A stretch of 27,445 nucleotides of DNA, from positions 1 through 27,445 of the forward strand of contig CAYLSJ010000003.1 of the NCBI GenBank assembly GCA_964386655.1, in the 5' to 3' direction. Positions within the stretch are counted from its first letter, which is position 1, and every line of letters starts with the position of its first letter. The notes under the pieces were generated by a model that worked only from the letters and a program-made list of their open reading frames with translations, was not told the DNA's origin and made no database searches. This document shows positions 8,148 to 24,965 of this stretch, piece after piece. A program made the position numbers and the translations under genes. Origin of the DNA: an uncultured Candidatus Bathyarchaeia archaeon (GTDB lineage Archaea > Thermoproteota > Bathyarchaeia > Bathyarchaeales > Bathyarchaeaceae).

Positions 8148-10202
8148 ATGAAGAAAGATACAGTCACGATCTTAATTGTTACATTGATTCTCATGGACAC
8201 CCTCACTTTTTTTGCCGACTTATCACCTTACGTATACGCTAATAGCACGAGTTTTCCAACGGTCGGTCCATCAGTCTTTGTGGACCCATCAAACATTACG
8301 AAATTTTTTGGCGAGACTTTTACTGTTGCTGTGAAAGTCTTCAACCTCACAGGGGTGTCTATCTCTCAACCTGGCTTGCCTGAGTTCAAGATTCCTTTGG
8401 GTAATCTATATGGCTTAAGCATTCAATTGTTTTGGGAGCCAACAATCATAGAGTATGTCAGCCATACTGTGACTATCCCTGTGGAAACCTATCCCGAGGG
8501 CATACTGCATGACCCGGTTATGGAAGTCATAAATGAGGTGAATCCCTCAGCTGGAACATACCGCATTGATTGTGCCTCTGTGGCTCCAGACGCTTCACCG
8601 TTCAATAATCCAGGCGCCAATAGCACAGTTTTCACCATGACTTTCAGAGTCATAGGGAAGGGAGCAACCCTTCTGCGCCTACCAATAGAAGAAATTGAAC
8701 TTGTTGACAACACAGGCAAACACCTTGGGTGGGACAGCACTGGCAGTCCACGTTATCTCTACAGTTTTGACGGTTACGTTAGTGTTGTAGGCGCGCCCAA
8801 CGCAGACTTTACCTATTGGCCCTCAGACGCAGCAGTTGTAAACAAGCAAGTGACCTTCAACGCATCAGCCAGCTATGACACTGCCCCTGGAGGTGCTATC
8901 ACTCTTTATATGTGGGATTTTGGAGATGGAACTAAACAGAACACAACCGATCCTATTATAACTCACAGCTTCACTCAGACTGGAGAATATTACGTGAAGC
9001 TCAGGGTTCTGGATAATGAAGTGCCTCCGTCAATAAGTGCGCCAAAGACGAAAGTCGTATATGTGGTAAACCGTCGTGATATAGCCATCACTAGCATTGC
9101 GGTTACGCCACCACAAATATTACAGAATTCAAATGTAACCATCGACGTCTCTGTTCGAAATGAAGGTGACGTGAAGGAAAACTCTACGCTCTCAGCATAT
9201 TACAACAAAACAGCAGTCGACACTACCACTGAATGGGTAGAGTTCGGCAGGAGAAGCGTGGTCAATCTCCAAAGCGGCGCCATTACCTCGCTGACCCTCA
9301 AATGGAACACAACTGGAGTAACCCCTGAAACTTACTATTTTATAAAGGTGAATGCAAGCAGAGTTCCGCAAGAAGAGGATGTCGACGACAACAATAGGGT
9401 AAGTACCCAGTCAGTGTTCGTCACTCTGGTGGAAACTCACGACATAGCGGTGGTTGCCATGGACATTGTAGCAAGTGAAGGTGAAGAAGAGTTCCCGGCT
9501 CCGTTTATCTTAGGTGAAACTGCATACATTGCCTTTGATGTAAAGGCAAATGGAACGGTTGATGAGACCTTCAATGCTACTCTTTCGGTTCTTGCCCCCA
9601 ACGGCACTTTATTGTTCACGAAAGACTGGACAAGTCAGAGCTTAGAGGTAGGCAAAACTAGTCCGCTGAATCATACTTTCAGCACAAGTGGTTATGTTTC
9701 GGGTAACTACGAGTTCAGCGTAAATGCTACAATCATCAAAAAAGACGACCGCCTAGGCAACAACTATGTGGAAAAAACGTTCATGATTATTAGGCCTCCT
9801 GTGATTGAAATCACTCCGTTGCCTAGCCCAATACATGCGGGCGAAACAATAGCCTTCGACGCCAGAGCCAGCAGTCACGCTGATGGTCAAATAACAAAGT
9901 ATGAATGGACGTTTTCGGAGGCGGGGACTGTCCGGTTCACCAAGTCTGGATCATTGGTTGACGCTACTTTTGATACTGCTGGTGATTGGGAATTTACATT
10001 GAAAATAACAGACAACTATGGTATCACATTCTCTGAACTTAGGGTGAGAACAAGCGCTTACAGGAGGAAGGAGAGAATTGTGGTTGAGGCCGGGGCATCA
10101 GAATTTCCTCTGTGGGCGGTTTATGGAGCAATGGCCATCATAGCGGTTGCGATTATAGCCTTATTGTTGTTCTTACGATTGAAGAGGTCTAAACCAAAGT
10201 AG
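8148..10202 (+). CDS. Membrane-anchored surface protein: signal - cohesin-like - PKD - CARDB x2 - PKD - TM
   Basis: Cohesin-like domain at about 8257-8785 (VFVDP..GETFTVAVKV..NLYGLSIQLFWEPTII..VFTMTFRV). PKD YMWDFGDG..ITHSF. CARDB DIAITSI..VRNEG and HDIAVV. C-terminal hydrophobic helix + KRSKPK. More than a dozen N-x-S/T sequons. Confidence 0.85.
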   Translation: MKKDTVTILIVTLILMDTLTFFADLSPYVYANSTSFPTVGPSVFVDPSNITKFFGETFTVAVKVFNLTGVSISQPGLPEFKIPLGNLYGLSIQLFWEPTIIEYVSHTVTIPVETYPEGILHDPVMEVINEVNPSAGTYRIDCASVAPDASPFNNPGANSTVFTMTFRVIGKGATLLRLPIEEIELVDNTGKHLGWDSTGSPRYLYSFDGYVSVVGAPNADFTYWPSDAAVVNKQVTFNASASYDTAPGGAITLYMWDFGDGTKQNTTDPIITHSFTQTGEYYVKLRVLDNEVPPSISAPKTKVVYVVNRRDIAITSIAVTPPQILQNSNVTIDVSVRNEGDVKENSTLSAYYNKTAVDTTTEWVEFGRRSVVNLQSGAITSLTLKWNTTGVTPETYYFIKVNASRVPQEEDVDDNNRVSTQSVFVTLVETHDIAVVAMDIVASEGEEEFPAPFILGETAYIAFDVKANGTVDETFNATLSVLAPNGTLLFTKDWTSQSLEVGKTSPLNHTFSTSGYVSGNYEFSVNATIIKKDDRLGNNYVEKTFMIIRPPVIEITPLPSPIHAGETIAFDARASSHADGQITKYEWTFSEAGTVRFTKSGSLVDATFDTAGDWEFTLKITDNYGITFSELRVRTSAYRRKERIVVEAGASEFPLWAVYGAMAIIAVAIIALLLFLRLKRSKPK

Positions 10203-10350
10203 TTAGTTGCCTATCATAGCTTCTTTGAAGCGGGATAATAGATTTTAGAGTTGCCATGGCGAACAGCATTCTAAGCTGTTTTCAGTGGTAAAGTGCGTGT
10301 ATGAGGAGGCTGACTTTAGCTTTTGACCAAATGCCAGACACCTAGAGAAT

Positions 10351-10370
10351 AGTTCCAGAAAGTTTAAAAT
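10351..10370 (+). promoter_or_regulatory. AGTTCCAGAAAG motif + TATA
   Basis: AGTTCCAGAAAG-TTTAAAAT. The 12-mer is identical at 16229-16240. Confidence 0.6.
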
Positions 10371-10419
10371 CTCTGATGATTAATATTAGGTGATGAAAAA
10401 GGAGAAAGGAGAGGTTTTC

Positions 10420-11697
10420 GTGAACATTAAGATAGTGAAACCAAAAAGCTACCTATTGGTCTTGATGCTTCTCATGAGCTTCTCGACGATTGGCATGTTA
10501 GGTTTGATAGCACCTGTGAAGGCACAATCTCACCCGCTTCCCTTGCTAAAAGTGGAAAACCCATCTCCGGCATTGTATCAGGTTTGGTTGACGAGCGAAG
10601 GCGAGCCACCTGCCGGCGTGGATCCATACTGGGACATCCAAGGAATCGACGTTTACATGTACTTCAATAAAGATGCCCTGACAGCAGTCCCATACAGTCC
10701 CAGTTCTCCTCTTAACCTCAACAAAGCTGGATGGAAAGTCTTCTGGCCAAACCCGCTTACACTTGCTCCTACGACTACGCTTGTAAATGAAATCAACAAC
10801 GCTAAAGGGTATGTAAGAGCTGCCTTTGTTGGGCTTCCTCTTACGGGTGGTGCGCACACTCCTCCAAATGGCAAAATACTCATGTTCTCGGCGATTTTCA
10901 CAGTCGACGATCCATTGCTGCCACCAGACGTAAAACTGAAAAATCCAGATCCTCGACCTGTAGTTCCTCCTTGGGGACAGGAATCTTTTCCAGTGGCTGT
11001 TTCAGGGTTTGCACACCCAGAGCGCCCTGAATCTCCATGGAACGGAGCTCCATGGGCGGTGCCAATTCCACATTTCGTGAGCAACCCAAATGCACGATTC
11101 TTGGTTTCAGACGCCATTCCAAAGAAGGATAAGATAGTCTACTTTGATGCTTCCATTAGTCATCACCCAAGCTTTATTGAGAGCTACGAGTGGGACTTGA
11201 ATGGTGATGGCACGGTCGACGCTACAGGCATGACTCCAACCTATTCTTATTCCACACGAGGAATGTACAAAGTGACTCTTAAAGTCACAGACCTCACAGG
11301 ATTGACTGACACAGCGTCACGCACGATCGCGGTAGAGGTATTCCGGGTCGCCAAGGCTGAACACACTGTGCAAGATATGTCAGATGACCCTGACAACACT
11401 ATCACTATTACAATGGTAAACAATGGGATCATCACAGGATTAGTTAAGCTCAAGGTCGACATATTCAACCGAAGAACTGGGATGAGGCCGATGCCTCCAC
11501 TTGAAGCAATTGGCGCACTGCCTGTTTCAACTCCGCCTGAAACCACTGATCTAAGCGTAGTGTTTACACCCCCAGACCCGGCTACGTATGACTTAACTGT
11601 GGAATGCTTCTATTTCGATGATTACACCGAGACGTGGGAACCGTTAAGAGAGTACAAGCTCGGAACATTGAAGCTCGTCATAAAAGCCGTACCATAA
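10420..11697 (+). CDS. Secreted protein: signal - divergent cohesin-like - PKD - Ig-like, no anchor (start likely GTG 10420)
   Basis: SD GGAGAGG before the GTG, hydrophobic signal ending VKA|Q, IQGIDVYMYFN..NEINNAKGYVRAAF..MFSAIFTV, PKD YEWDLNGDG..YSYSTRGMYKVTLKVTD. No C-terminal TM or dockerin. Confidence 0.75.
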   Translation: MNIKIVKPKSYLLVLMLLMSFSTIGMLGLIAPVKAQSHPLPLLKVENPSPALYQVWLTSEGEPPAGVDPYWDIQGIDVYMYFNKDALTAVPYSPSSPLNLNKAGWKVFWPNPLTLAPTTTLVNEINNAKGYVRAAFVGLPLTGGAHTPPNGKILMFSAIFTVDDPLLPPDVKLKNPDPRPVVPPWGQESFPVAVSGFAHPERPESPWNGAPWAVPIPHFVSNPNARFLVSDAIPKKDKIVYFDASISHHPSFIESYEWDLNGDGTVDATGMTPTYSYSTRGMYKVTLKVTDLTGLTDTASRTIAVEVFRVAKAEHTVQDMSDDPDNTITITMVNNGIITGLVKLKVDIFNRRTGMRPMPPLEAIGALPVSTPPETTDLSVVFTPPDPATYDLTVECFYFDDYTETWEPLREYKLGTLKLVIKAVP

Positions 11698-11726
11698 GCG
11701 ACAAGAGCCAGTAACAAGACACAAAA

Positions 11727-11757
11727 GCGCACGAATGTGCGCCTATCCCCCTTTTTT
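11727..11757 (+). terminator. Hairpin + oligo-T candidate terminator
   Basis: GCGCAC-GAAT-GTGCGC (11727-11742) followed by T6 at 11752-11757. Confidence 0.5.
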
Positions 11758-11794
11758 ATGTTTAGTTCGGTAGTGTGGAAAAGGAGATGGATCA

Positions 11795-13630
11795 ATGCCC
11801 AACAAGCGAGTTCATCTGGTTGCACTGACGCTGTTGGTGATTCTATTTTCTGTTATCATTGTATCCAGTGGCTTCACAATGGCTTGGTCACTTGACATGA
11901 GGTTAACATGGGATGAAGAATATGACGCTATGCCATCCGTAATCCAAACGACAGACGAAAAAATATGGGTTTTTTGGCATTCATACAGAACGAATGATGC
12001 GGAAATCTTCTATAAGGTTTATGACGGAAGTCAAGTGCATCCTTGGTCGCTGGAAATGAGGCTAACTAATAATCAAAGCGAGGACGGAACTCCAAGCGCC
12101 ATGCAAGCTGCAGATGGGAAAATGTGGGTTGTATGGATGAGTAATAGGGTTGGAAACTATGAGATCTTCTACAAAATTCGCGACGGCATATCATGGTCAC
12201 CGGATTTTAGACTCACCTTTGACGCTGCTGTTGACGAACTCCCTTCAATCATGCAAACAGAAGACGGCAAGATTTGGGTTTTCTGGGACTCTGGAAGAAA
12301 TGGAAACTATGATATATTTTACAAGACTACGCTTGACAGTGGACAAAACTGGTCTCCTGATTCTAGGCTTTCCATTTCGTCTACAAGTGCCGACGACTGG
12401 GACCCATCAGTTATGCAGGCTAAGGACAACAAAATTTGGCTTACTTGGGTAAGGAACGATCATGTTTACTACAGTGTTTTTGACGGATCTTTGTGGTCAT
12501 CTGCTTCGAAAGTAACTTCGGGCGGACTCGACAATTGGCATCCTTCCATTATGCAAACTCAAGACAGCAAAATCTGGGTTGTGTGGGATGCAGGGAAGGT
12601 CTCAGCAACGCAACCTGTTCCAACAGACATTTACTATAGTGTTTTTGATGGGTCGTGGTCTTCTCCTTTGCAGATAACAACAGACTCGGCTGAGGATTTC
12701 ATGCCATCAGCCATTCAGGATAATGGTGGAACTATCTGGGTAGTTTGGACTTCTGACCGAAGTCCTTTTACTGATTTGTACTACCGACTAAACTCCACAT
12801 CTCCCGCTCACGATGTCGAGATATTTAGTGTCATCCCGTCTAATCCATCGGTTGTTTTAGATGAAAGCGTTTCCATTGAAGTTGTGGCTAGAAATCTTGG
12901 AACGAACAACGAGACATTTGAGGTTCAACTCTACGCTAACTCAACTTTGATAGGATTTCAGATGGTTTGGGATCTGTTTCCCGGGCAACTTTACCCGATT
13001 GACTTTATTTGGGACACAATGGGCTTTGATCTGGGTAAATACATTATCAGCGCTAACGCTACAATTATCGCTGAAGAGACGAACACAGATAACAACTTTT
13101 TTACCGATGGGGTCGTCAGCGTTGATTGGCGTGATGTCGCAGTGACTGAGTTGACACCTTTTAAAACTGTTGTTGGGCAAGGTTTCACTCTCAATGTAAG
13201 AACGATTGTGGAAAATCAGGGCACTTGCACTGAAACCTTTGATCTAATAGTCTACTACGACGTAACTCCGTTTGGTAGGCAGACCCTTACCTTGGAACCT
13301 GGAAATTCCGCTACAGTTAGTTTTGCTTGGAACACCGCAAGTATAGCTAAGGGCAATTACTTCTTAAGTGCAGAAGCAACTGTAGTGCCTTTCGAAAAGG
13401 ATACAAATGACAACTTCGGCACCGACGGCATAGCCACTGTTACGATTCCAGGTGATGTCAATGGCGATAGAGTTGTTGACCTGCTGGACTTGAATGCCCT
13501 GTGCAGAGCTTACGGGTCTGCCCCGGGAAGTTCAAGGTGGGATTCAAACTGTGCTATCAACGACGACTCCATAATTGATGGTGTTGATCTTGCAATAGTC
13601 GGCAAAAACTTTGGAAAGACAGACTTGTGA
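11795..13630 (+). CDS. Secreted protein: 6-repeat BNR/Asp-box-like beta-propeller - CARDB x2 - dockerin
   Basis: Six repeats of about 50 aa (WS...RLT....D..PS.MQ..DGKIWV.W.S.R.GNY.IFYK), one Asp-box TTLDSGQNWS, CARDBs HDVEI.. and RDVAV.., and dockerin GDVNGDRVVDLLD..AYGS..W..AINDDSIIDGVD..KNFG at 13451-13630. Confidence 0.85.
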   Translation: MPNKRVHLVALTLLVILFSVIIVSSGFTMAWSLDMRLTWDEEYDAMPSVIQTTDEKIWVFWHSYRTNDAEIFYKVYDGSQVHPWSLEMRLTNNQSEDGTPSAMQAADGKMWVVWMSNRVGNYEIFYKIRDGISWSPDFRLTFDAAVDELPSIMQTEDGKIWVFWDSGRNGNYDIFYKTTLDSGQNWSPDSRLSISSTSADDWDPSVMQAKDNKIWLTWVRNDHVYYSVFDGSLWSSASKVTSGGLDNWHPSIMQTQDSKIWVVWDAGKVSATQPVPTDIYYSVFDGSWSSPLQITTDSAEDFMPSAIQDNGGTIWVVWTSDRSPFTDLYYRLNSTSPAHDVEIFSVIPSNPSVVLDESVSIEVVARNLGTNNETFEVQLYANSTLIGFQMVWDLFPGQLYPIDFIWDTMGFDLGKYIISANATIIAEETNTDNNFFTDGVVSVDWRDVAVTELTPFKTVVGQGFTLNVRTIVENQGTCTETFDLIVYYDVTPFGRQTLTLEPGNSATVSFAWNTASIAKGNYFLSAEATVVPFEKDTNDNFGTDGIATVTIPGDVNGDRVVDLLDLNALCRAYGSAPGSSRWDSNCAINDDSIIDGVDLAIVGKNFGKTDL

Positions 13631-13736
13631 TTGATACTGAACTTTGTTGAATTCACCAGGTGTTTTGACGCGTTTCTGAGAGGAGTTTTAGGAGTGAAAA
13701 GCGTATGTTGTTTTTTAGACACATTTTTTTGTGGAT

Positions 13737-13752
13737 AAGAAAGTTTAAGAAT
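13737..13752 (+). promoter_or_regulatory. BRE/TATA-like box
   Basis: AAGAAAGTTTAAGAAT about 35-45 nt upstream of ATG 13785. Confidence 0.55.
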
Positions 13753-13784
13753 ATACCTCATTATATAAGGATTGAGGGAAGAGA

Positions 13785-16052
13785 ATGGAAAGGAAACGCC
13801 ATATGAAAGTTTTGGTTTTTACGTGGCTTCTCTTGGGCTTCTTCGTTTCAAGTTTTATAGATATTCGAACAGGCAATTCGCTCCCTGGAACAACAATTCT
13901 TGTGGCTCCTTCAGAAGTTACAAAAGCTGTTGGTGAAACCTTCGACATTAAGGTAAATATCTCTGATGTAACTAATCTTTATGGCTTGGACATTCAATTT
14001 TGGTGGGACTCAACCCTTTTAAAATACATTAGCAAGAATGTTAGGATTCCTAAAAGTACTTACTCTGACGGTGTTCTCTGGTCTCCATTCTTGAAATACA
14101 AGGACGTGGTCGATGCGGCAGCTGGTACGTACTGGCTTGCAGCATCCTCTTTCGGGGTCGCCAAGTCATTTAATGGTTCGGGAACAGCGTTCATCATGAC
14201 CTTCGAAGTCTTAAGAGAGGGCGCCTGTTATCTACACTTTACAAGTACTGGTCTAGGGGACAAGCCTGCTTCACCAGGTGAACCTTCAGAGCCAATTCCC
14301 CATGAACGCGTAGACGGTAAGTTCAGCACAGCTGGGGCTGGCTTGGCGCCTTTTGCAAGTTTTACTTTTGAGCCAGCGAAAGTCTTTGTGAACAAGACAA
14401 CCGTCACTTTCAACGCAACGGATAGTTATGATCTTGACCCGAGTGGAAACGTAACCCTCTATATGTGGAATTTTGGAGACGGAAATAAAACAAACACGCC
14501 GGATCCCATAATAACCCATGTTTACACTCTGGGCGGGATAGATTATTCAGCTGCCTTACAGGTTAAAGATAACAACAACAGCTTAAGCTTTCCCTACGTT
14601 AAATCCGTGCTTGTAATAGACTATTCCGATGTAAAAATAGATGAAGTCGAAGCTTCGCCACTCTCTGTGTCTAGAGGCTCAAATGTGACAATCGACGTCA
14701 CAGTCAGCAACATCGGCATCACAAGCCCACCCACCTTCAACGTCACAACCTACTACAACAAAACAGCAACAGAATGGATAAAAATCGATACACGACGTGT
14801 GGAAATTCTAACCAAAGGCACCACTACGACTTTGACATTCAATTGGACAACTCGAGTCACCCCCGACGCTTATTATAAGATAAAGGCAAACACAACCATA
14901 ATCGAAAACGACTATGACCTCAGCAACAACGCTGCGGAGAGCGACACATTAGTATATGTAATGCCAGGTTATCCTGTAGCCAGCTTCATCTATGCACCAG
15001 ATATTCCAGTACCCAGAGAACAAGTGACTTTTGATGCTCGAGCCAGCTCTGATCCAGATGGAAAAATTACCGAATACAGATGGAATTTCGGAGATGGAGC
15101 TAAAGAGAACACTGCCAACCCAATTGTAACTCATGCTTACGAGACTCCGGGCACCTACAATGTGACCTTAACAGTTGTTGACGATGATGTAGAACAACTA
15201 AAAGGGTCTTCCACTATGTGGGTGCAAGTATCCGTATACTATTCATTAGACGTCACAATTGATGTTGGATCAATACACTTCGCAGGTGAGGCAGCTGAAT
15301 TTTACATCAAGACATCAAGGTTAGGCAAACTCTTCAACGCCACGGAAATCACGGCAGTTCTTTATTATTCATACGGAACCAAATATTTGGACCTAAGTGA
15401 AAACATACGAATCATAAAAACTGGGGTCTACAGGTTACCGTACGTTCTGCCGTCAGACGCTTTAACGGGCACATACACACTTGTTGTCCAAGCAAGCTAT
15501 CTTAACCTTGAAGGAACCGCTCTCAAGAGCTTTCTGGTAAGCCAAACGTTAACTGGTTGGAACCCACTGCTGCTCAGCATCAACGGAACTGTGGCAACAA
15601 TAAAAACCGACGTAGGTCTGGTTCAGATGAAACTGGAAGACATCAACGCAACATTAATCGAGATTATTGTTGATAGCGAGGGCGAAATCCTTGCGAAGAT
15701 AGACTCGGCAGTTGGAACAATAATGGCAGAATTGAGCACAATTAACGCAACTCTAACCGATATAATTGTTGATAGCGAGGGCGAAATCCTTGCGGAGATA
15801 GACACTGCGCTGGGAACGGTAACGGCACAACTGGATACAATCAATTCTAGGGTCGTTGCCATTGACGGCAATGTTATCACTATAAAGACTGATCTTGGCA
15901 CAATCAAAACCACAACAAGCGATGTACAAACCTCTGTTGCAGGCGTCCAAACAACCGCCTCAACTTCTCTCTATGTGACTTCAGCGTTTTCGGCTATTGC
16001 AGCAGTGGTTGCAACCGTAGTTTTACTTCTATTGAGAAAAAAGCCTAAATAA
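13785..16052 (+). CDS. Membrane-anchored surface protein: signal - cohesin-like - PKD - CARDB - PKD - Ig-like - helical repeat stalk - TM
   Basis: Cohesin-like domain at about 13890-14330 (GETFDIKVNISDVTNLYGLDIQFWWDSTLL..FNGSGTAFIMTFEV), two PKD motifs W(N)FGDG, a 33-aa repeat stalk, and C-terminal TM + RKKPK. Confidence 0.85.
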   Translation: MERKRHMKVLVFTWLLLGFFVSSFIDIRTGNSLPGTTILVAPSEVTKAVGETFDIKVNISDVTNLYGLDIQFWWDSTLLKYISKNVRIPKSTYSDGVLWSPFLKYKDVVDAAAGTYWLAASSFGVAKSFNGSGTAFIMTFEVLREGACYLHFTSTGLGDKPASPGEPSEPIPHERVDGKFSTAGAGLAPFASFTFEPAKVFVNKTTVTFNATDSYDLDPSGNVTLYMWNFGDGNKTNTPDPIITHVYTLGGIDYSAALQVKDNNNSLSFPYVKSVLVIDYSDVKIDEVEASPLSVSRGSNVTIDVTVSNIGITSPPTFNVTTYYNKTATEWIKIDTRRVEILTKGTTTTLTFNWTTRVTPDAYYKIKANTTIIENDYDLSNNAAESDTLVYVMPGYPVASFIYAPDIPVPREQVTFDARASSDPDGKITEYRWNFGDGAKENTANPIVTHAYETPGTYNVTLTVVDDDVEQLKGSSTMWVQVSVYYSLDVTIDVGSIHFAGEAAEFYIKTSRLGKLFNATEITAVLYYSYGTKYLDLSENIRIIKTGVYRLPYVLPSDALTGTYTLVVQASYLNLEGTALKSFLVSQTLTGWNPLLLSINGTVATIKTDVGLVQMKLEDINATLIEIIVDSEGEILAKIDSAVGTIMAELSTINATLTDIIVDSEGEILAEIDTALGTVTAQLDTINSRVVAIDGNVITIKTDLGTIKTTTSDVQTSVAGVQTTASTSLYVTSAFSAIAAVVATVVLLLLRKKPK
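15642..15839 (+). repeat. Intragenic 99-bp (33-aa) tandem repeat x2
   Basis: The 30-mer ATTGTTGATAGCGAGGGCGAAATCCTTGCG is identical at 15666 and 15765. Units are INATL.(E/D)IIVDSEGEILA.ID.A.GT..A.L.T. Confidence 0.92.
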
Positions 16053-16065
16053 ACTCTGCACTTCC

Positions 16066-16076
16066 AACCCTTTTTT
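16066..16076 (+). terminator. Oligo-T candidate terminator
   Basis: T6 at 16071-16076, about 20 nt after the stop. Confidence 0.45.
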
Positions 16077-16250: not shown

Positions 16251-16302
16251 TCAATATACGACATTTACATGACGAACAAAACAGAAGAGAAAGGGGAGAG
16301 TT

Positions 16303-18720
16303 ATGAAGATAAAATGCTCGTCCATAGTGCTAATTACGACTTTGGCTCTTTTGACCACACTTGTATCAACGCCAGCACCAGCGAAAGCAGCAGGGACTGG
16401 TGGTCCACGGGCTCCTGGATTGAAGATTTACTTCTATGCTTCAACTGACGCGGCATTTGGCGCTATAGTGGCAGACCCGCCCGAGATTGACCTCTATGGT
16501 GGTATGCTCCTAAAGCCCCAATATGACCAAGCAATAACAGATTCCGACTTGACACTGTCGCAGTTCACAACTACTTTCACCATCACGAACCATGCATTCA
16601 TGAGTTCCGACGAAGATTGGGTGTTTGCATGGCTTGGAGAACGCAACCCGATAAGCGAAGTACACTTCAGAAAAGCCATGGAACATTTGGCAAACAGAGA
16701 TGCATGGATAGAGACCATCCTTGAAGGAATGGGAAAAAGAATCGATGTGCCAGTTGCAGCTCCATCTGTAGCTTGGATGAACGAGAGCATAATCGGCTCA
16801 AACTATCCATACCCATACAGTCACGCACTTGCTAAGGCTGAACTGCTTGCGGGCGGCTGGGAAGACTACGACAACAACGGAATAATCAACTATCCATTAG
16901 ACTGGCCTGGCAAAGCTGGAGTGATAGGCGTCAGAGACGAACCCGACATGGACGCACTTATATACTATGCCTACAACACACCTGCCACAAGATATGCCAT
17001 GGCTCTAGACCACGCAACCCAAATCCAAAACATAGACTGGGGAGGCGGTGTCAAAAAGAAGATTCCTGTAACCCTAACCGCTCAATCTTATGACTTCTTT
17101 GATACAGTCGTGTGGACCGACTACAAGTATCAAATTGCCACAGACGGTTGGAGCGTAGGAAGATACCCAACATATCTTAGAAGCTTCTTCGGCAGCGGAT
17201 ACTGGTGGCCTGGAGAGGGTGGAGTTAACGCCTACACCCCAGGATATCCAGAACTCGATGCAGCTCTTGACAATATGTTCTTCGCTCCAGACTTGGGTAC
17301 AGCCATTACTAATGCCAAACTCGCTCAAAGCATAATCATGGACAAATACGCCCTCTGGATCCCAATATGGTCAGGCGCGGGCTTCTACGCCTACAGAAAC
17401 TTGTTAGGCGTCGTGTCAACACCCAACACAGGACCATTCAACTACTTCACTGAAATGAACGCCATTCGCTCAGACGATGCAACACAGCCCATCAGAGTTG
17501 GCATAGTTCCAGCACCAATGGCACTCAACCCAATAACCTCAATGTGGGTGGTCGACGTAACCGTCATGCAGGAACCTTGGGACGGTGTCATTAACACCAA
17601 CCCGTACGACGTGCTGATAGACCAGCCAAACTTAGCTAGGGACTGGAGTGTCACAACCTGGAGTGGGGGTGGAGTTACTGGCACACTGGTCAAATATTGG
17701 CTCGACACCCGTTATAATTGGATCAAGCCAGGAACGGGACCAGACGCTGGCACAATAATTGGACCGCACGACACCAGTAACCAAGAATTCGTTGCTTGGT
17801 ATCACTTCCACACTCCATCTTGGGTTCGCGCTTCCTACCGAGACATACACCACATCAGAGTTATTGATAACGATGAGATTGAGTACTACTTCAACAAGAT
17901 CGGTGTCTTCTACGGCGCCAACTTCTATCCATGGGCAAGGGTGTTCTATGTACCACCAGGCGAGAACAAGGGAGGATGGAAGACATATCCACTTGTTCAA
18001 GATGGAGATCCTGGCACACCTGTGGGACCTGACGGCGTCACAGGACTTGACCCATCACAGAAAACACTCATCTCAGGCACGATATCTAACGCAACCCATG
18101 TGGCAACCCCACCGTATGGAACGGGAAGGGTGGCAGCGACAGCCCTACCATTCCGAGCGGCAGGCGCAGCTGTAGAAATACTATCAGTGACGGCTGGAGG
18201 CTCACCGCTAACAAAATACACTGACTACGAGATAGAATCGGGCTACGTCACAATTCACGCGTCAGTAGCGCTCGGTACACCAATTACCATCAGATACTGG
18301 GCTAGAGGCAGCTACGCTGGGGACCTACCAGGCGGCTTACCATTCGAAAAGACCCTGATGGGCACAGGCATCTGGTACATGACAGAATACATCCCAGGAA
18401 GCTGGGCAGTCTACAAACCTAACAGATTACACCCATGGACAACTCCACCACTAGGAGAAACCGACTGGTTGTGGATGTGGACAAGCTCAGTCAAACCAAG
18501 AACTGGTAACATGGAAATCACCATCGCTGACTTCGTCAAGGGCACAACAGCATACGCAAGCCACGCTAACAAGGTACCGAAGCCAACCTGGAACCCAAGT
18601 GCAGACCTAGCTAAAGTGGTTACTGGAAATGCACCTAACGGAATAGGTGAAATCACCGTAGAAGACATAAACACCATAGGCGGACCTGCCTACGATACAA
18701 CATTCTGGGAACTACCATAA
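16303..18720 (+). CDS. Family-5 (Dpp/Opp-type) ABC substrate-binding protein, apparently circularly permuted, with C-terminal dockerin-like tail
   Basis: Recognisable SBP5 segments: HFRKAMEHLANRD, YSHALAKAELLAGGW, IRVGIVPAPMALNP, QPNLARDW, MGTGIWY. It is the first gene of the dppBCDF cluster. Sec signal ends AKA|A. No lipobox or TM. Confidence 0.8.
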   Translation: MKIKCSSIVLITTLALLTTLVSTPAPAKAAGTGGPRAPGLKIYFYASTDAAFGAIVADPPEIDLYGGMLLKPQYDQAITDSDLTLSQFTTTFTITNHAFMSSDEDWVFAWLGERNPISEVHFRKAMEHLANRDAWIETILEGMGKRIDVPVAAPSVAWMNESIIGSNYPYPYSHALAKAELLAGGWEDYDNNGIINYPLDWPGKAGVIGVRDEPDMDALIYYAYNTPATRYAMALDHATQIQNIDWGGGVKKKIPVTLTAQSYDFFDTVVWTDYKYQIATDGWSVGRYPTYLRSFFGSGYWWPGEGGVNAYTPGYPELDAALDNMFFAPDLGTAITNAKLAQSIIMDKYALWIPIWSGAGFYAYRNLLGVVSTPNTGPFNYFTEMNAIRSDDATQPIRVGIVPAPMALNPITSMWVVDVTVMQEPWDGVINTNPYDVLIDQPNLARDWSVTTWSGGGVTGTLVKYWLDTRYNWIKPGTGPDAGTIIGPHDTSNQEFVAWYHFHTPSWVRASYRDIHHIRVIDNDEIEYYFNKIGVFYGANFYPWARVFYVPPGENKGGWKTYPLVQDGDPGTPVGPDGVTGLDPSQKTLISGTISNATHVATPPYGTGRVAATALPFRAAGAAVEILSVTAGGSPLTKYTDYEIESGYVTIHASVALGTPITIRYWARGSYAGDLPGGLPFEKTLMGTGIWYMTEYIPGSWAVYKPNRLHPWTTPPLGETDWLWMWTSSVKPRTGNMEITIADFVKGTTAYASHANKVPKPTWNPSADLAKVVTGNAPNGIGEITVEDINTIGGPAYDTTFWELP

Positions 18721-18751
18721 AACAGATGAACCAGCAAGCCAAACACTCTAT

Positions 18752-18765
18752 TTCCTCTTTTTTTT
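18752..18765 (+). terminator. Oligo-T terminator after the SBP gene
   Basis: TTCCTC + T8 (18758-18765). Confidence 0.6.
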
Positions 18766-18785
18766 GTGTATTTCTGCAAGAATTT

Positions 18786-18799
18786 AAACCTTAAATACC
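18786..18799 (+). promoter_or_regulatory. Candidate internal promoter for dppB
   Basis: AAACCTTAAATACC about 55-65 nt upstream of ATG 18852. Confidence 0.5.
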
Positions 18800-18851
18800 T
18801 CTTGTCTTAAAAGGCTTCACAGACCATCAAAGGAAAAGGTTGAGAGAGAAG

Positions 18852-19847
18852 ATGGGTCTTAGAGGCTATATTGCTAAAAGAGTTGTTTATAGTCTGATCC
18901 TCCTATGGGCCATTATGACCCTAAACTTCATAATTTTCGTAATGATGCCTGGAGACCCCATCTCCAGATACATCAAGGCACAAGAAGGAAGAGAAACATC
19001 TAAGGAAGACCTAGAGGTACTTAAAAAAGTATACGGCGTAGATGTGCCCTTACAAGAAAGGTACTTTCTGTACATTAAAAACATGCTAACATGGAATTTC
19101 GGAAGAACCCGATACATAGAAAACCCAATAGCCCTAGAAATCACACGCAGATTAGGAAACACCTTGCTGCTGACGAGCACAGCCGCATTTTTCTCCATAA
19201 GCGTTGGTACATTACTCGGTGTACTCATTGCGTCAAGAAGAGGAACTAAAACAGACACAGGAACAGTCACTGGCGCATTGGTCCTTTCCAGTTTACCCGT
19301 GTTCTGGATAGGCTGGTTAATCCTTTTCGTTTTTGCAATACAGCTGGGCTGGTTTCCAGTTGGTGGAACTTACCCGAAATGGTGGGCGGGCAATTGGCCA
19401 ACCGACCCTCTGGTGTACCTTTCAGGGCGAATCCTGACCTTAGTCTTGCCAGTACTCACTCTCTTCATCTTAACTTTTGATGGATGGATGCTTTTAACGA
19501 GAGCATGCGTACTTGAAACCATCACTGAAGACTTTGTCGTGACTGCTAAAGCAAAGGGATTGAGACAGAGATCGGTCTTGCTAAAACATGTACTAAAAAC
19601 TGCATCACTTCCTTTAGTTACTGCAATAGCCCTAACTATTTCTGGGCTTTGGGGAGGCGCCATAATAACTGAAACATTGTACAGTTACGATGGACTGGGC
19701 AGATGGGTATATCAAGCAATAACACAACAAGATATTCCAGTTTTGTACGTCATTTTCTACATAGACGCACTCATGATAATCATTGCAAACTTCGCAGTAG
19801 ACTTGGTTTATGGGTTCATAGATCCACGAATAAAGGTTGGTAAATAG
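18852..19847 (+). CDS. dppB: Peptide ABC transporter permease, DppB/OppB-type (start likely ATG 18852)
   Basis: YIAKRVV..MPGDP N-terminus, RLGNTLLL, and EAA-like loop EDFVVTAKAKGL..VLLKHVLK. Confidence 0.92.
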   Translation: MGLRGYIAKRVVYSLILLWAIMTLNFIIFVMMPGDPISRYIKAQEGRETSKEDLEVLKKVYGVDVPLQERYFLYIKNMLTWNFGRTRYIENPIALEITRRLGNTLLLTSTAAFFSISVGTLLGVLIASRRGTKTDTGTVTGALVLSSLPVFWIGWLILFVFAIQLGWFPVGGTYPKWWAGNWPTDPLVYLSGRILTLVLPVLTLFILTFDGWMLLTRACVLETITEDFVVTAKAKGLRQRSVLLKHVLKTASLPLVTAIALTISGLWGGAIITETLYSYDGLGRWVYQAITQQDIPVLYVIFYIDALMIIIANFAVDLVYGFIDPRIKVGK

Positions 19848-19850
19848 CTG

Positions 19851-21461
19851 ATGTCAACATACAAAGAACGAGTCGTTTTCACACTGAAAGGGCTCAAGCA
19901 CTTTTGGACAGAGTATAAACAAACCAAGCGAGGAGTAGTAGGATTCGCAATCATTTGCATTTACATCGCACTTGGCATTCTAGGACCTATTCTGTCGCCA
20001 CACGACGCTTTAAACCCATCATGGCCCGGATATTACCCTGCAGGCAGAGCTCTCATTGCAGACTACTTAACTTTGCCAGGCTGGTACAGATACTTGCCTG
20101 GAGGAGGCGGTTTGTCAGAAAACACAAAACTAATACAAGATCACGAATTCTCAACGGAGCAAGCTATGAATGCATGGAAATGGGAAACCAACGCTCCCAA
20201 CTTTGCTAACCTGAAATATAATCCTGTGAAGGGAGACCGTAACGAAGGAGCCATGGAAGTAACCTACCTACGTGAAACTGGAGCTACTCCCTTGAACAAA
20301 ACCTACGTGCGAATAACCCATGATTTCAGATGGCCGTACAGAAGTCATCCGAGGCAATTTTGGCTACATGCATCCACCCTTGTCAACGGCACAGTTTCCT
20401 TACCTAACTATGTTGAAATAGAATTCATGTTTCACAGAACACAAGCTCCTCCACCTTTAGCTGATTACGAATACCCACTTGTGTCCACTGAAGATTCTTT
20501 AGTTGTCTATACCTATCCACTCATCACAGAGACCATCAGCAGTCCGAGCATAGCTTGGTACCATCAATGGATAAGGTCGAAAACAGAGAAAATCAACCTT
20601 GACCCAAAGTATTATCTTCAACCAGAAACAGTCATATTCCCAGCCCCAGGCAATTACACCTACGAAATCAAAGTAAGTTTTCAAGACAGTGGAGGTCTCC
20701 AAAAAAACATAACAGTATACTTAGATAACCTAGATGTGCTGCTTTACGGAGAGACATACGGCATCCTTGGCACAGATCGGAACTTGGGTTATCCACGAGA
20801 CATAGCCACATCATTAATGTACGGGGCAAGAATCTCCATCGCTGTAGGCTTAATAGCCGCCTCAATATCCGTGTCCCTCGGTCTACTTTTGGGCTTAATT
20901 GCAGGATACATTGGCGGTGTCACAGATGAAGCTGTAATGAGAATAGCAGATCTTCTCATAGCTCTTCCAGGCTTGCCACTAATAATAATTTTGACTGTGG
21001 TGCTCTCAAGCTCTATATGGAATGTTATAGTGATCTTATCCTTCTTAGGATGGATGGGATTCTCACGCAATGTAAGATCAATGACACTATCCCTGCGTGA
21101 AAGAGCCTTTATTGAAGCTGCCAAAGCTGCTGGAGCCGGCAGATTCCACATAATATTTAAGCATATTCTTCCTAACGTGTTTGCCCTAGTCTATCTTGCG
21201 CTTGCAGTGTCGGTTCCGGGAATCATTGTTGCAGAAGCTACGTTGAGTTGGCTTGGATTATTTGATCCATATCAGATATCTTGGGGAAGAATGCTCGGTG
21301 AATTTTCCAACTCTGGAGTTGCGGTTTCGAAAGGATTCGCTGAATACTGGTTCTGGGTAATGCCACCGGGCTTAGCAATATCCATGTTAGCCATTGCATT
21401 CATACTAACAGGCTATTCTCTGGATGAAATACTAAACCCAAAACTTAGAGCCAGACGCTGA
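19851..21461 (+). CDS. dppC: Peptide ABC transporter permease, DppC/OppC-type, with large extracytoplasmic insertion
   Basis: GILGTD..RDI..LMYGARISI, MRIADLLIALP, EAA loop FIEAAKAAGA..IIFKHILPN, WWVMPPG-like end. An insert of about 240 aa follows TM1. Confidence 0.92.
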   Translation: MSTYKERVVFTLKGLKHFWTEYKQTKRGVVGFAIICIYIALGILGPILSPHDALNPSWPGYYPAGRALIADYLTLPGWYRYLPGGGGLSENTKLIQDHEFSTEQAMNAWKWETNAPNFANLKYNPVKGDRNEGAMEVTYLRETGATPLNKTYVRITHDFRWPYRSHPRQFWLHASTLVNGTVSLPNYVEIEFMFHRTQAPPPLADYEYPLVSTEDSLVVYTYPLITETISSPSIAWYHQWIRSKTEKINLDPKYYLQPETVIFPAPGNYTYEIKVSFQDSGGLQKNITVYLDNLDVLLYGETYGILGTDRNLGYPRDIATSLMYGARISIAVGLIAASISVSLGLLLGLIAGYIGGVTDEAVMRIADLLIALPGLPLIIILTVVLSSSIWNVIVILSFLGWMGFSRNVRSMTLSLRERAFIEAAKAAGAGRFHIIFKHILPNVFALVYLALAVSVPGIIVAEATLSWLGLFDPYQISWGRMLGEFSNSGVAVSKGFAEYWFWVMPPGLAISMLAIAFILTGYSLDEILNPKLRARR

Positions 21462-21638
21462 CAACTGTAGCGCTTGTCATCCCTAACTCAAAAGACCGAT
21501 TCTGTCATGTAGAAACCACCAATATCCTTTCTGTCAATTCATGATGCTTGAACGGCAGGTCACCAAAAACTTATTTAGCGAAATGTATTTCAACATATGT
21601 TCCAACTATTAACAAAACCATAACCCAAGGTAAATAGA

Positions 21639-22607
21639 ATGGCACTGCTTGAGGTCAACGATCTAGTAACTCATTATATTACGCTTAGGGGCTCAGTAAA
21701 AGCAGTTGACAAGATCAGTTTCCAAATAGAGAAAGGAGAAGCAATGGGATTAGTTGGAGAATCAGGTTGCGGCAAAACCACTGTTGCCTTGTCTCTCCTT
21801 AAAATTCTGCCTTCAGGTGGAAGAATCATCAATGGCAAAATTCTCTTCAAAGGCGTAGACATAGTCCAACTTGAAGAAGAAGAAATGCGAAAGAGCATCA
21901 GGTGGAAAGGAATATCACTTATATTCCAAGGAGCCATGAACGCGCTCACTCCCGTTTACAAAATTGGATATCAAATTATCGAAGCGATTAGAATACACGA
22001 ACCCGATGTGGACAAGAAAGAGGCCACAGAGAGAGCGAAAAAACTTCTCGAAATGGTCGGAGTCGAACCTAAAAGAATTGACAACTACCCCCACGAATTT
22101 AGTGGCGGAATGAAACAACGCGCAATGATCGCTATGGCCCTAGCATGCCATCCTGATCTTTTGATTGCAGATGAACCCGCAACAGCCTTAGACGTAGTTG
22201 TTCAAGCGCAGGTTCTTGAACTTATCAAAGCGCTTAAGGACAAGTTGCACTTATCAATGATGTTGATAACACACGACTTGTCAATTGTTGCTGAGACGTG
22301 TGAAAAGATTGCCGTTATGTATGCTGGAAAAATCGCGGAATACGGAGATATAATCACTATTTTTAAGGAACCTTTGCATCCGTATGCTCAAGGTTTACTG
22401 GAAGTATTCCCAAATATTAAGGCGCAGAGAAGTCGTGCTATGTCCATACCAGGTTCTCCACCAGATTTATTATCACCTCCCAGTGGCTGTCGATTTCATC
22501 CGCGTTGCAAGTACAGAATGGAAATTTGCAGTAAGAAGGAGCCAGCAGTCACTGAAGTCAAAAGAGGGCTACATTATGCCGCCTGCCACCTCTTATACAA
22601 AGCCTGA
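21639..22607 (+). CDS. dppD: Peptide ABC transporter ATPase, DppD/OppD-type
   Basis: Walker [10 protein letters not shown], signature FSGGMKQR, Walker B LLIADEP, HPY, and C-terminal GCRFHPRC Cys cluster. Confidence 0.95.
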
Positions 22608-22620
22608 TGAAGGTATAAAA

Positions 22621-23616
22621 ATGCAAGAAACAGTTGTAAAAGCCGTTGAATTAACAAAATGGTTTCCCGTGAGAATGGGCTTTTTTGGAAGCTTGTTTTT
22701 CAAACAAGAGCAGTATGTCCGAGCAGTAGATGGAATAGACCTAGAAATCAAAAGAGGCGAGATTTTTGGACTTGCGGGAGAAAGCGGTAGCGGAAAAACG
22801 ACTACTGGAAGGCTGCTTGTCAAACTTATTGAACCTACTCAAGGGAAAATTTTTTTCCATGGGCAAGATATAACGGCTCTCTCAGAAAGCTCGTTTAAAC
22901 CTCTACGTCGAAAAATCCAGATAGTATTCCAAGACCCTTACGAGTCACTTAACCCTAGAATGACTGTCTTCAACATTATCGCTGAACCATTGCTACTGCA
23001 ACAGATTGCTAGCGGGGCTCAAGTTGAAGAGAGAGTTCATAAAGTTCTGGAAGAGGTGGAATTAACTCCCGCTCGGGAATTTCTCTACCGATACCCTCAC
23101 GAGCTCAGTGGAGGCCAAAGGCAACGTGTAGCGACAGCAAGAGCCTTAGCTTTGAACCCAGAGTTTATTGTTGCCGATGAACCTGTTTCCATGTTAGATG
23201 TTTCTGTGAGAGCAGAAGTTCTAAACCTGATGTTTCATTTAATGGAAAAATATAATGTGTCATTCTTGTACATCACCCACGACTTGGCATTAGCCCGTCA
23301 CATCTGCAATTCGATAGCCATTATGTATTTGGGCAGAATTATGGAAAAAGCTCCTACAGAAAAGATTGTGTACGAACCCCTGCATCCCTATACAAAAGTG
23401 CTTATCGCAGCGGTTCCAGTTCCTGATCCTACGGTAAGGCGTGTAAGAGCCATGGTTAAAGGGGAAATCCCAAGTTCAGTGAACCCCCCGTCTGGATGCA
23501 GGTTCCACACTAGGTGCCCAGAGTTCATTGGAGATATTTGCAAAACAAAAGAGCCGGTGTTAACCGATGTTGGCAGTGGACAATGTGTTGCATGCCACTT
23601 GTACTCTAAGCGATGA
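22621..23616 (+). CDS. dppF: Peptide ABC transporter ATPase, DppF/OppF-type (start ATG 22621, not 22384)
   Basis: Walker A GESGSGKTT, LSGGQRQR, IVADEP, HPY, GCRFHTRC. The ATG lies 13 nt after the dppD stop. Confidence 0.95.
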   Translation: MQETVVKAVELTKWFPVRMGFFGSLFFKQEQYVRAVDGIDLEIKRGEIFGLAGESGSGKTTTGRLLVKLIEPTQGKIFFHGQDITALSESSFKPLRRKIQIVFQDPYESLNPRMTVFNIIAEPLLLQQIASGAQVEERVHKVLEEVELTPAREFLYRYPHELSGGQRQRVATARALALNPEFIVADEPVSMLDVSVRAEVLNLMFHLMEKYNVSFLYITHDLALARHICNSIAIMYLGRIMEKAPTEKIVYEPLHPYTKVLIAAVPVPDPTVRRVRAMVKGEIPSSVNPPSGCRFHTRCPEFIGDICKTKEPVLTDVGSGQCVACHLYSKR

Positions 23617-23802
23617 AAGAACTATTCTTATCCTAAAGGAAGGAGCATCGAACGGAATCGGGAGTTACTGTAACATTCTGAACTTCTCTTAATGACTACA
23701 CATTTTTGAGTATGCCTTGATTTTGCGCTTTAGACGAGGCAGCTGGGTTTTTTCCTCTCTTTCTGATTCCATATGTCTTTGTGGTATTTAACCCTCGAAG
23801 AT

Positions 23803-23824
23803 AGTTCCATAAGTTTTAATTAAT
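23803..23824 (+). promoter_or_regulatory. AGTTCCATAAG motif variant + TATA
   Basis: AGTTCCATAAG-TTTTAATTAA about 35-45 nt upstream of ATG 23859. Confidence 0.5.
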
Positions 23825-23858
23825 TGTATTCCGAAAGTCTTCTTGGTCGTCGATTGAG

Positions 23859-24965
23859 ATGTTTCGGAAACTTACCTTAATCTGCGTCTTGTTACTGGCA
23901 GTAACACTATTGTTTAACGTAGGAGTCCAGGTGTGTATAAGCCAAGTCCCGAGAAATATCATGGTTTCTTTCGACGCTAAACTTGACGTATTCAGCCCTC
24001 AGCCTCCGCTGGACATATCTGTATGGTTCGAAGCTGAGGTTCTCTACGACGGTGAGCCAACGCATCCGACGCTGCCCGCAAACACAGTGACGTTGCAACT
24101 GCTAGTCAACGGTTCACTCGTGAATTCCTACCTGTATCCATACTCGTTACCAGTTGGTTCAAAATTCACTTACACTTACAAATGGGTTCCCACGGCGGAG
24201 GGTAAGTATAATCTTACGGCCTACGTGCCTCCACTGGCTTGGGAGACAATACGGGATGATAACGTTGAATGGGACGTTGTGCCAATATTCGAGCCGATTG
24301 TGAACCCTCGTGTTTATGTTGATCCGCCAAGCATTACGGTATACAAGGGCGAAATCTTCACAGCTAGAGTAAATATTGCCAATCTCTCTGACCTTTACGT
24401 TCGCGACCAGACCATGTACGATATTCCTCTTGGAAATTTCTACGGCGCTGATTTCTACTTCTATTACGACTCTTCAAAATTAGCTGTTCTTGATTTCACT
24501 ATGCCTATCTGGTGGATTTTTGCGGACAATTCAACCGCTGGAACCTTCTATGTCCTGGGAACATCGTATCCTCCTGAGCCACCATTGAACAACTATCCTT
24601 ATCCTGGAAGCACCACTGTTTTAGAGATAACGTTCAGGGCAACCGCTACAGGAATTGTTTCTCTAAGCCTTCCCATCGGAAACATGATGCTTGTAGATAA
24701 AGACGGAAGATACATCGGAAGAGACGCAATATGGGAACCAACCTATCTGTCTGCTACCTATGGATCTGTGAGGATTAAGATAGTAGGCGATGTGAACGGC
24801 GATGGCATCGTAGATTTCCGTGATCTGTATGCACTCGGTAGAGCTTATGGAAGTGTGTCAGGCTCAGGGGACAACTGGAACAGAGAATGCGACTTTAACA
24901 GAGACAACAAAGTGGATTATCTTGATCTATCAGCCTTACTTAAGAACTACGGCAAAACAGAGTAA
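23859..24965 (+). CDS. Secreted protein: signal - CARDB/Ig-like - cohesin-like - dockerin
   Basis: Cohesin-like domain at about 24303-24780 (VYVDPPSIT..GEIFTARVNIANL..IPLGNFYGADFYFYYDSSKL..VLEITFRA). Dockerin from 24786 has two intact Ca loops, DVNGDGIVDFRD and DFNRDNKVDYLD. Confidence 0.85.
   Translation: MFRKLTLICVLLLAVTLLFNVGVQVCISQVPRNIMVSFDAKLDVFSPQPPLDISVWFEAEVLYDGEPTHPTLPANTVTLQLLVNGSLVNSYLYPYSLPVGSKFTYTYKWVPTAEGKYNLTAYVPPLAWETIRDDNVEWDVVPIFEPIVNPRVYVDPPSITVYKGEIFTARVNIANLSDLYVRDQTMYDIPLGNFYGADFYFYYDSSKLAVLDFTMPIWWIFADNSTAGTFYVLGTSYPPEPPLNNYPYPGSTTVLEITFRATATGIVSLSLPIGNMMLVDKDGRYIGRDAIWEPTYLSATYGSVRIKIVGDVNGDGIVDFRDLYALGRAYGSVSGSGDNWNRECDFNRDNKVDYLDLSALLKNYGKTE

Follow-up and report, generated by a model that had tools for sequence, protein, structure and literature searches.

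A predicted cohesin-dockerin surface assembly of non-cellulosomal type, encoded with an Opp/Dpp-type importer in Bathyarchaeia

The stretch of DNA analyzed here (hereafter, the window) is a whole contig of 27,445 bp, the closest named protein relatives of which come from metagenome-assembled genomes (MAGs) of Candidatus Bathyarchaeota/Bathyarchaeia; the assignment of the contig to this lineage is probable and follows from these relatives. It carries a cluster of twelve collinear plus-strand genes (6621-24965), namely orfA, orfB, P1 to P5, dppB, dppC, dppD, dppF and P10. Judging from domain composition and gene neighborhoods, we lean toward the view that the products of this cluster form a conserved, apparently Bathyarchaeial, surface assembly of cohesins and dockerins, distinct from a cellulosome and in genetic coupling with an ATP-binding cassette (ABC) importer of the Opp/Dpp type; this assembly probably tethers P5, the anchor-less binding protein of the importer. 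The well-defined, conserved inventory of the cluster comprises two anchors, an adaptor, an orphan cohesin, a propeller cargo and a transport binding protein that ends in a cryptic dockerin. Since 1999, the cohesin-dockerin pairs of archaea have been described as enigmatic: binding occurs in vitro, and nobody, to our knowledge, can say to what purpose. The location of the present set beside importer and peptidase genes makes this long-unknown role testable. The Bathyarchaeia are believed to feed on the detrital protein of sediments.

Four cohesin-like domains, in P1, P2, P4 and P10, had been proposed in an earlier note on this DNA, and the proposal is borne out by paralogy, family profiles and structural models. 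The domains of P1, P4 and P10 are paralogues with pairwise identities of 34-43%; the N-terminal domain of P1 (residues 37-215; nt 8256-8792, plus strand) is 43% identical to that of P4 and 36% identical to that of P10 (BLASTP, P1 against P10, 7e-25). The Pfam Cohesin model (PF00963) scores P4 just short of the cut-off (23.3 against 24.1 bits), and the Pfam scan gives no match to this model in P1, P2 or P10; among the eight database relatives of the P1 family, two (P0005 and P0006) match PF00963, and one, from Bathyarchaeia, is named 'cohesin domain-containing protein'. In searches of the PDB, the P1 domain as a single sequence retrieved nothing relevant; the profile of 11 P1-family sequences retrieved type II cohesins of A. 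cellulolyticus ScaB (E 1.3e-5). The AlphaFold2 (AF2) model of this domain (pLDDT 86, pTM 0.84) has only cohesins among its top 17 Foldseek matches in the PDB (E 5.8e-9 to 6.1e-6, TM-score up to 0.79 on the target).

The cohesin of P2 (residues ~46-236), denoted here COH-b, is divergent, with 19-27% identity to the cohesins of P1, P4 and P10. The first homologue search with this domain returned the window's own protein alone, and against the cohesin profile the single sequence stayed below significance (hhalign probability 0.4%). Of the 57 relatives in a representative library, 26 match Pfam Cohesin, and the resulting P2 family profile aligns with the P1-family profile at an hhalign probability of 97.4% (E 1e-11). 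The AF2 model of the domain (pLDDT 92) retrieved cohesins or cohesin-like proteins as the top 43 matches of a PDB fold search. COH-b is a distinct cohesin subtype, with a conserved extension (AGFPHPER..PW..VPIPH.VENATY). Because the P1 and P2 models and the family profiles match cohesins, and P4 and P10 are paralogous to P1, all four predicted cohesins are considered to be correctly called; the earlier note had envisaged that such domains might model as unrelated immunoglobulin (Ig)-like or carbohydrate-binding module (CBM) folds, and for both modeled domains cohesins came out at the top instead. Each of the window proteins contains one cohesin, and their relatives contain at most two (COH-a plus COH-b). 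In many relatives, the P2-type cohesin follows a COH-a cohesin in a fusion, whether or not the protein has an anchor.

The counterparts of the cohesins are three dockerin or dockerin-like C-termini, which had been listed in the earlier note as well. Those of P3 (residues 552-605; nt 13448-13609, plus strand) and P10 (residues 310-360) pass the cut-off of the Pfam Dockerin_1 model (PF00404, 22.9 bits) with 24.2 and 31.7 bits, respectively. The loops of the P10 dockerin, DVNGDGIVDFRD and DFNRDNKVDYLD, follow the duplicated DxNxDxxxDxxD pattern; those of P3 are DVNGDRVVDLLD and AINDDSIIDGVD, the first ligand of loop 2 being alanine. The C-terminus of P5 shows no Pfam dockerin match even at E 10, and a Pfam scan of ten C-terminal modules of binding proteins gave no dockerin match except one of 0.56, to the separate canonical dockerin of the relative P0016. 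The Pfam searches suggested in the note recovered PKD, CARDB and Dockerin_1 (in P3 and P10), brought up Cohesin only near the threshold, in P4, and left the P5 dockerin unscored.

Profile comparisons place the P5 C-terminus (residues 718-805; nt 18454-18717, plus strand) among derivatives of dockerins. All 13 examined relatives of P5 contain a conserved C-terminal module of ~85 residues with the consensus GE(I/T)DWxWxW..PRxGyyxIxlYDxv....AYGS.G..P..WxPgADl....G.IdIYDv.....YG..F..PP. The profile of this module aligns with local canonical dockerins at an hhalign probability of 97.5% (E 7.4e-12), shows reciprocal cross-matches of hidden Markov models with the canonical dockerins of related loci, and retrieves the X-dockerin of A. 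cellulolyticus ScaA from the PDB (E 0.004). The module is therefore classed as dockerin-derived and not as canonical, considering that it has no Pfam match and yet shows these homologies; the wording 'dockerin-like' of the note is apt for P5. In the canonical dockerins of two related loci (L008 and L016), an ordinary first loop is joined to exactly the second half of the module (WNPxADLAP..G.IDIYDV..YG, also written WNPNADLAPEFGIIDIYDV..YG); these dockerins are intermediates between a canonical dockerin and the P5-type module. The P5 module is thus a true derivative of dockerins with a degenerate first calcium loop; its second loop carries an insertion. In type I complexes, dockerin loop positions 10 and 11 set specificity. 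These positions read LL/GV in P3, FR/YL in P10 and IA/VE in P5, and the differences among the three putative plugs would fit distinct partners.

N-terminal signal-type hydrophobic segments are present in P1, P2, P3, P4, P5 and P10 according to the hydropathy scan, and these genes surround dppBCDF in a run of ten genes (8148-24965), every one of them on the plus strand; hydropathy, gene map and Pfam agree here with what had been claimed before. Among the six surface proteins, only P1 (residues 651-682) and P4 (residues 727-753) have a C-terminal transmembrane (TM) helix followed by a basic tail, in accord with the claim that only the two cohesin stalk proteins, and none of the dockerin-bearing ones, are anchored in this way. 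P1 and P4 are thus anchored cohesin proteins, and P2, P3, P5 and P10 are secreted without an anchor. P1 (8148-10202) consists of a signal peptide, the cohesin, PKD, CARDB, an Ig-like domain, a second PKD and the TM helix, as identified by Pfam (PKD and CARDB), the AF2 cohesin fold and the TM scan. P4 (13785-16052) combines, on similar evidence and with the near-threshold Cohesin match, a signal peptide, the cohesin (residues ~33-185), PKD, CARDB, PKD, a stalk of repeats with weak coiled-coil-type matches and the TM helix. P2 (10390-11697) contains a signal peptide, COH-b, PKD and a C-terminal Ig-like domain, the cohesin assignment coming from the family profile and AF2, and its only hydrophobic segment is the N-terminal one; it starts at 10390/10393 and not at 10420 as originally annotated. 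P3 (11795-13630) comprises a signal peptide, a propeller-like domain of six repeats, two CARDB domains and the canonical dockerin (Pfam). P10 (23859-24965) contains a signal peptide, a CARDB-like domain, the cohesin (residues ~146-305; BLASTP against P1) and the canonical dockerin. Proteins of A. fulgidus likewise carry a cohesin together with a dockerin on a single chain, and the relatives P0001-P0003 are cohesin-plus-dockerin proteins of 270 residues.

The importer encoded amid these genes is complete, with two BPD_transp_1 permeases and two ABC ATPases carrying oligo_HPY: dppB/oppB (18840-19847; BPD_transp_1, 6.6e-33, and BPD_transp_1_N), dppC/oppC (19851-21461; OppC_N and BPD_transp_1), dppD (21639-22607; ABC_tran and oligo_HPY) and dppF (22576-23616; the same two domains). 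The start of dppF, inferred from an orthologue in the related locus L002, is most likely at 22576. P5 (16303-18720), which has a signal peptide, is a family-5 solute-binding protein: SBP_bac_5 scores 41.9 bits against a cut-off of 32.4, the match covering positions 192-361, half of the model. Searches of the PDB with the full-length P5 sequence and with its middle segment came back empty; the profile of the binding-protein family retrieves AppA, DppA, NikA and others, with the oligopeptide binder AppA as the best match. Archaeal and Gram-positive binding proteins are as a rule held by a lipid or TM anchor or by fusion with the permease. In the hydropathy scan, P5 and its relatives have neither a lipobox cysteine after the signal peptide nor a terminal TM segment (signal peptide in 13/13 relatives, C-terminal TM in 0/13), so that this family lacks the usual means of retention.

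In the mechanism that we propose, P1 and P4 would be membrane-anchored stalks offering one cohesin socket each, the dockerins would plug into cohesins, and P10 would plug in and add a further socket; anchor-less proteins would thereby be kept at the cell surface. P3 would be a non-catalytic propeller client, and P5 would be held at the surface by its dockerin-derived module, in place of a lipid or TM anchor. COH-b of P2 would be the best candidate partner of the P5 module because COH-b accompanies the operon in every cohesin-bearing locus. Captured oligopeptides would pass through DppBCDF, and the cytoplasmic S9 and M14 peptidases encoded in the flanks would then break them down. If P5 is indeed docked, this would explain how an anchor-less binding protein is retained, surveys based on Pfam would be expected to undercount dockerins, and the cellulosome principle would extend from enzyme display to nutrient capture.

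The association of these components is conserved. In L002, a 145-kb contig of a distant relative from the Joint Genome Institute (JGI), the twelve-gene cluster is collinear, with orthologues that are 38-77% identical (orfA 51%, orfB 41%, P1 46%, P2 39%, P3 52%, P4 55%, P5 38%, dppB and dppC 62% each, dppD and dppF 77% each, P10 40%); P10 is followed there by an S9 peptidase gene and an MFS gene. All 11 genome loci recovered for the binding-protein family are from MAGs of Bathyarchaeota/Bathyarchaeia. For a survey of linkage, profiles of cohesins, dockerins, binding proteins and dpp genes were run over 17 loci seeded by the binding protein, with flanks of up to 10 kb on each side. The binding protein adjoins dppBCDF in nine loci besides the window, and cohesin ORFs (open reading frames) lie in the flanks of seven of these, the remaining two being cut by contig ends. 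Orphan binding-protein genes, located beside housekeeping genes, have a cohesin nearby in only one of nine cases (7/9 versus 1/9; Fisher one-sided p 0.0076). The linkage of cohesins and dockerins to ABC binding proteins, which the note had expected to see in other genomes, is therefore found. Each of the eight operon loci with cohesins contains COH-b (in L011 as a truncated start), often fused behind COH-a. In three of the loci (L011, L014 and L017), cohesins are present and the flanks contain no canonical dockerin, which makes the module of the binding protein the only local plug.

The reciprocal scan, of 37 metagenome loci seeded by COH-b, many of them short, found this binding protein or dpp genes in 10 of the 37 and in 5 of the 13 that measure 9 kb or more. 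A recurrent cassette (L031, L032, L034, L038, L041 and L050) consists of an anchored COH-a protein encoded on the opposite strand, a COH-a+COH-b protein of ~1000 residues, a dockerin protein of ~335 residues, a COH-a+dockerin adaptor of ~630 residues and another COH-a+COH-b protein of ~800 residues, with or without an adjoining operon of the binding protein and dppBCDF. Given that this self-standing cassette recurs without the operon, the cohesin-dockerin system is a unit in its own right that is often, not obligatorily, found beside the importer.

Two other accounts can be set aside: a true cellulosome is rejected because the window has no glycoside hydrolase, no CBM and no multi-cohesin scaffoldin, and chance co-location is rejected on account of the collinearity of L002 together with the enrichment of cohesins at operon loci relative to orphan loci. 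A more serious, if unlikely, alternative is that the cohesin-dockerin proteins are a general surface scaffold or an adhesion system (cell-cell, cell-particle or envelope) with P3, P10 and similar proteins as clients; the importer would then be a mere frequent neighbor, and the P5 module a fossil dockerin, a structural cap or a part with some other function. Several observations weigh against the tethering of P5, and some of them (the cassette without the operon, the degenerate calcium loops, the fast substitution and the extra dockerin of P0016) speak for this alternative. The cohesin/dockerin cassette occurs without the importer operon in 8 of the 13 long metagenome loci (L031, L032, L050 and others), and 8 of the 9 orphan binding-protein genes that encode the module have no cohesin nearby. 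Loop 1 of the P5 module reads PRTGNMEITIAD and retains only the last aspartate of DxNxDxxxDxxD; its calcium loops are degenerate and escape Pfam. The module of the relative P0016 is internal and is followed by an extra canonical dockerin, so that the module alone is perhaps not a docking device. The cohesins of P1 and P4 are located at the membrane-distal end of Ig-like PKD/CARDB stalks of 450-570 residues, an awkward site for a binding protein that needs its permease, and P2 has a cohesin with neither a membrane anchor nor a dockerin by which to stay at the surface. In favor of the general scaffold, PKD and CARDB are domains characteristic of adhesins, and adhesion roles have been proposed for such proteins in anaerobic methanotrophic (ANME) archaea (PMC5244752).

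The fast substitution of the P5 module belongs with these points. Among ~98%-identical strain variants, 8 of 14 and 11 of 15 amino-acid differences in P5 (p 5e-5 and 5e-8) are concentrated in its C-terminal 94 residues, in a hot spot at residues 712-805 (window 18436-18717) which makes up 12% of the protein. Several of the hot-spot changes in other strains restore the family consensus, for example, AYAS to AYGS, and the copy in the window may for this reason be decaying; alternatively, the module may expose a surface under diversifying selection. Relaxed constraint, rather than tuning of specificity, could account for the hot spot. For P10 and P3, no informative pattern of substitutions emerged from the strain variants.

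Against a general scaffold stands the retention of the module at the C-terminus of every family member, with invariant aspartates at the loop ends, in binding proteins that have no other visible means of retention. The linkage of cohesins to the operon is significantly above that at orphan loci, and in the three loci without a canonical dockerin the binding-protein module would have no competitor as the plug.

An improbable alternative is that P5 is retained or positioned by the large extracytoplasmic domain of DppC or by membrane proteins of the orfB type, the module serving as a handle and the cohesins binding canonical dockerins only. DppC contains an insert of ~270 residues between TM1 and TM2, as seen in the TM map, which is large, conserved and without an assigned function; orfB-like anchored proteins recur beside the operons; and a contact of this kind would solve the delivery of ligand from the distal tip of a stalk. 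However, orphan binding proteins keep the module without an adjoining DppC, dockerins are established as binding cohesins and not permease domains, and nothing ties the DppC insert, which has no Pfam match, to cohesin-like folds. The insert (residues ~55-320) is conserved in relatives, where dppC encodes 508-621 residues, and might offer the binding protein a platform for docking.

The ligand of P5 is probably an oligopeptide, as suggested by the neighboring peptidases and by the Opp/Dpp family label. Three peptidases without a signal peptide flank the cluster in the window: an S9 peptidase with a PD40 propeller (2794-4581, minus strand), the orthologue of which adjoins the cluster in L002, an M14 zinc carboxypeptidase (4695-6425, plus strand) and an S9 prolyl oligopeptidase (25240-27135, minus strand), all assigned by domain and hydropathy scans. 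In two related loci, subtilisin-like S8 proteases with a dockerin at the end are encoded beside binding-protein genes (L005, 2213-6202; L006, 19881-21495), and in a third a Peptidase_M10 domain is fused to the binding protein (P0014; L007, 10001-12754). It would take a good deal to persuade us that the same tethering serves an importer of oligosaccharides or of a metal or metallophore, which would bring the assembly nearer to a glycan-harvesting analogue of the cellulosome. Family-5 binding proteins do carry sugars, nickel and haem too, the family profile also scores binders of chitin oligosaccharides, mannosides, alpha-galactosides, nickel and haem, and many archaeal and Thermotoga 'Opp' systems carry sugars; these facts bear on the peptide assignment from the opposite side, as does a weak CBM_X2-like stretch in P5, which is the only, sub-threshold, sign of a CBM in the window. 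However, Pfam scans found no catalytic domain of glycoside hydrolases, polysaccharide lyases or carbohydrate esterases in any window protein, in agreement with the earlier remark that no glycoside hydrolase is evident, and no CBM or other carbohydrate-active domain at threshold. The peptidases beside both the window and L002 clusters, the dockerin-bearing S8 proteases and the M10 fusion of the relatives, and the best PDB match, to AppA, all favor peptides.

A more specific proposal can be put forward only tentatively. In Bathyarchaeia, a derived dockerin, perhaps one that does not depend on the first calcium site, might tether the ABC binding proteins by insertion into the dedicated, divergent cohesin COH-b. 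The same scaffold would hold S8 proteases with dockerins as well, and would thereby unite proteolysis with the capture and import of peptides in a surface 'peptidosome'; the binding protein would perhaps also be a circular permutant of the cluster-C fold. If the docking of the derived dockerin into COH-b is real, it would be a further general way to anchor binding proteins in cells without an outer membrane. As to the permutation, the binding-protein family (P5 and P0010-P0021) may, by sequence matches, represent the classical SBP_bac_5 fold in circularly permuted form. Residues 84-296 of P5 match SBP_bac_5 positions 192-361, and the PDB binders align by their C-terminal halves. In the relative P0013, a later segment matches SBP_bac_5 positions 3-85 (E 1e-6); this second match was seen in one of seven members only.

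The closest known counterparts are in ANME archaea, where dockerin-bearing binding proteins of the OppA/NikA type are common (Chadwick et al. 2022, PMC9012536). The earlier description of archaeal cohesin-dockerin systems as having no established role, and of the present one as repurposed, was in this light overstated. Both cases are archaeal and non-cellulosomal, with Opp/Nik-type (in ANME also TroA-type) binding proteins that carry dockerins and with cohesin proteins in the same genomes, and in both the function is deduced from domains only. In contrast to ANME, the dockerin of the binding protein is here so derived that Pfam misses it, and domain surveys would accordingly not list a dockerin of the P5 type; the cohesin anchors, adaptor, cargo and importer are encoded together in a single cluster of conserved gene order, in Bathyarchaeia; and the window proteins contain one cohesin each, whereas the scaffoldin-like proteins of ANME contain up to five. 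A search of the literature on cohesins and dockerins in Bathyarchaeota/Bathyarchaeia found no description of such clusters. What is new is thus the operon-level coupling, the cryptic dockerin of the binding protein, the COH-b subtype and the lineage; dockerin-bearing binding proteins as such were already known from ANME.

The cohesin and dockerin modules of A. fulgidus, which are archaeal and outside a cellulose context as well, are reported to bind in vitro and have no functional context (Bayer 1999; Haimovitz 2008; cited in PMC9012536). The window cluster differs in having a conserved genomic context of an ABC importer and peptidases. By analogy, the predicted assembly would work like the anchoring tier of a clostridial cellulosome (SdbA/ScaB), with which it shares a cohesin protein fixed to the cell, secreted dockerin proteins that lack an anchor and an adaptor containing both domains; moreover, the P1 and P2 models match cellulosomal cohesins best (type I, type II and the R. 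flavefaciens type). Unlike the cellulosome, the window encodes no glycoside hydrolases, CBM or multi-cohesin primary scaffoldin, the anchor is a C-terminal TM helix and not S-layer homology domains or a sortase signal, and the predicted clients are a propeller without catalytic function and the binding protein of a transporter. In Ca. Stygibacter (Cloacimonadota), a cellulosome-like complex with dockerin-bearing S8/C25 peptidases has been inferred (PMC8542988). This cohesin-dockerin assembly, proposed for the breakdown of polypeptides and polysaccharides, resembles the present one in that dockerin-bearing S8 proteases occur in L005 and L006; it differs in being bacterial and in having a giant scaffoldin with tandem cohesins, CBMs and glycoside hydrolases, with no link to an ABC binding protein. 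Finally, canonical anchoring of binding proteins by a lipobox, an N- or C-terminal TM segment or fusion to the permease meets the same need, to keep the binding protein near the permease in the absence of an outer membrane; none of these anchors is present here, and a protein-protein plug is proposed instead.

The cluster contains two further genes upstream of P1. orfA (6621-7106, plus strand) encodes a membrane protein of 161 residues with TM segments, for which the Pfam search gave no match; its 51% identical orthologue occupies the same position in L002. orfB (7318-8001, plus strand) encodes a protein of 227 residues with TM segments at both the N- and the C-terminus and a basic tail, and orfB-like genes are found beside binding-protein or cohesin loci in L002, L006, L008, L013, L016, L017 and L038. 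Besides the three peptidases, the flanks of the window encode two MFS transporters. An NCBIfam search gave no matches for the surface proteins. The propeller-like domain of P3 (residues 30-335; window 11795-12800) consists of six repeats of ~50 residues with the motif D.K(I/M)W(V/L).W...(I/L)(F/Y)Y, which resemble Asp-box propeller blades; searches of Pfam and of PDB sequences found no relative and no catalytic family for it. The gap between dppC and dppD is 400-600 nt long in seven related loci (L006, L011, L012, L014, L016, L017 and L038) and harbors a minus-strand ORF of 109-160 residues; in L008 it contains a plus-strand ORF of 329 residues with a weak cohesin match and two TM segments. 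In the window, the same gap is AT-rich and only 177 nt long.

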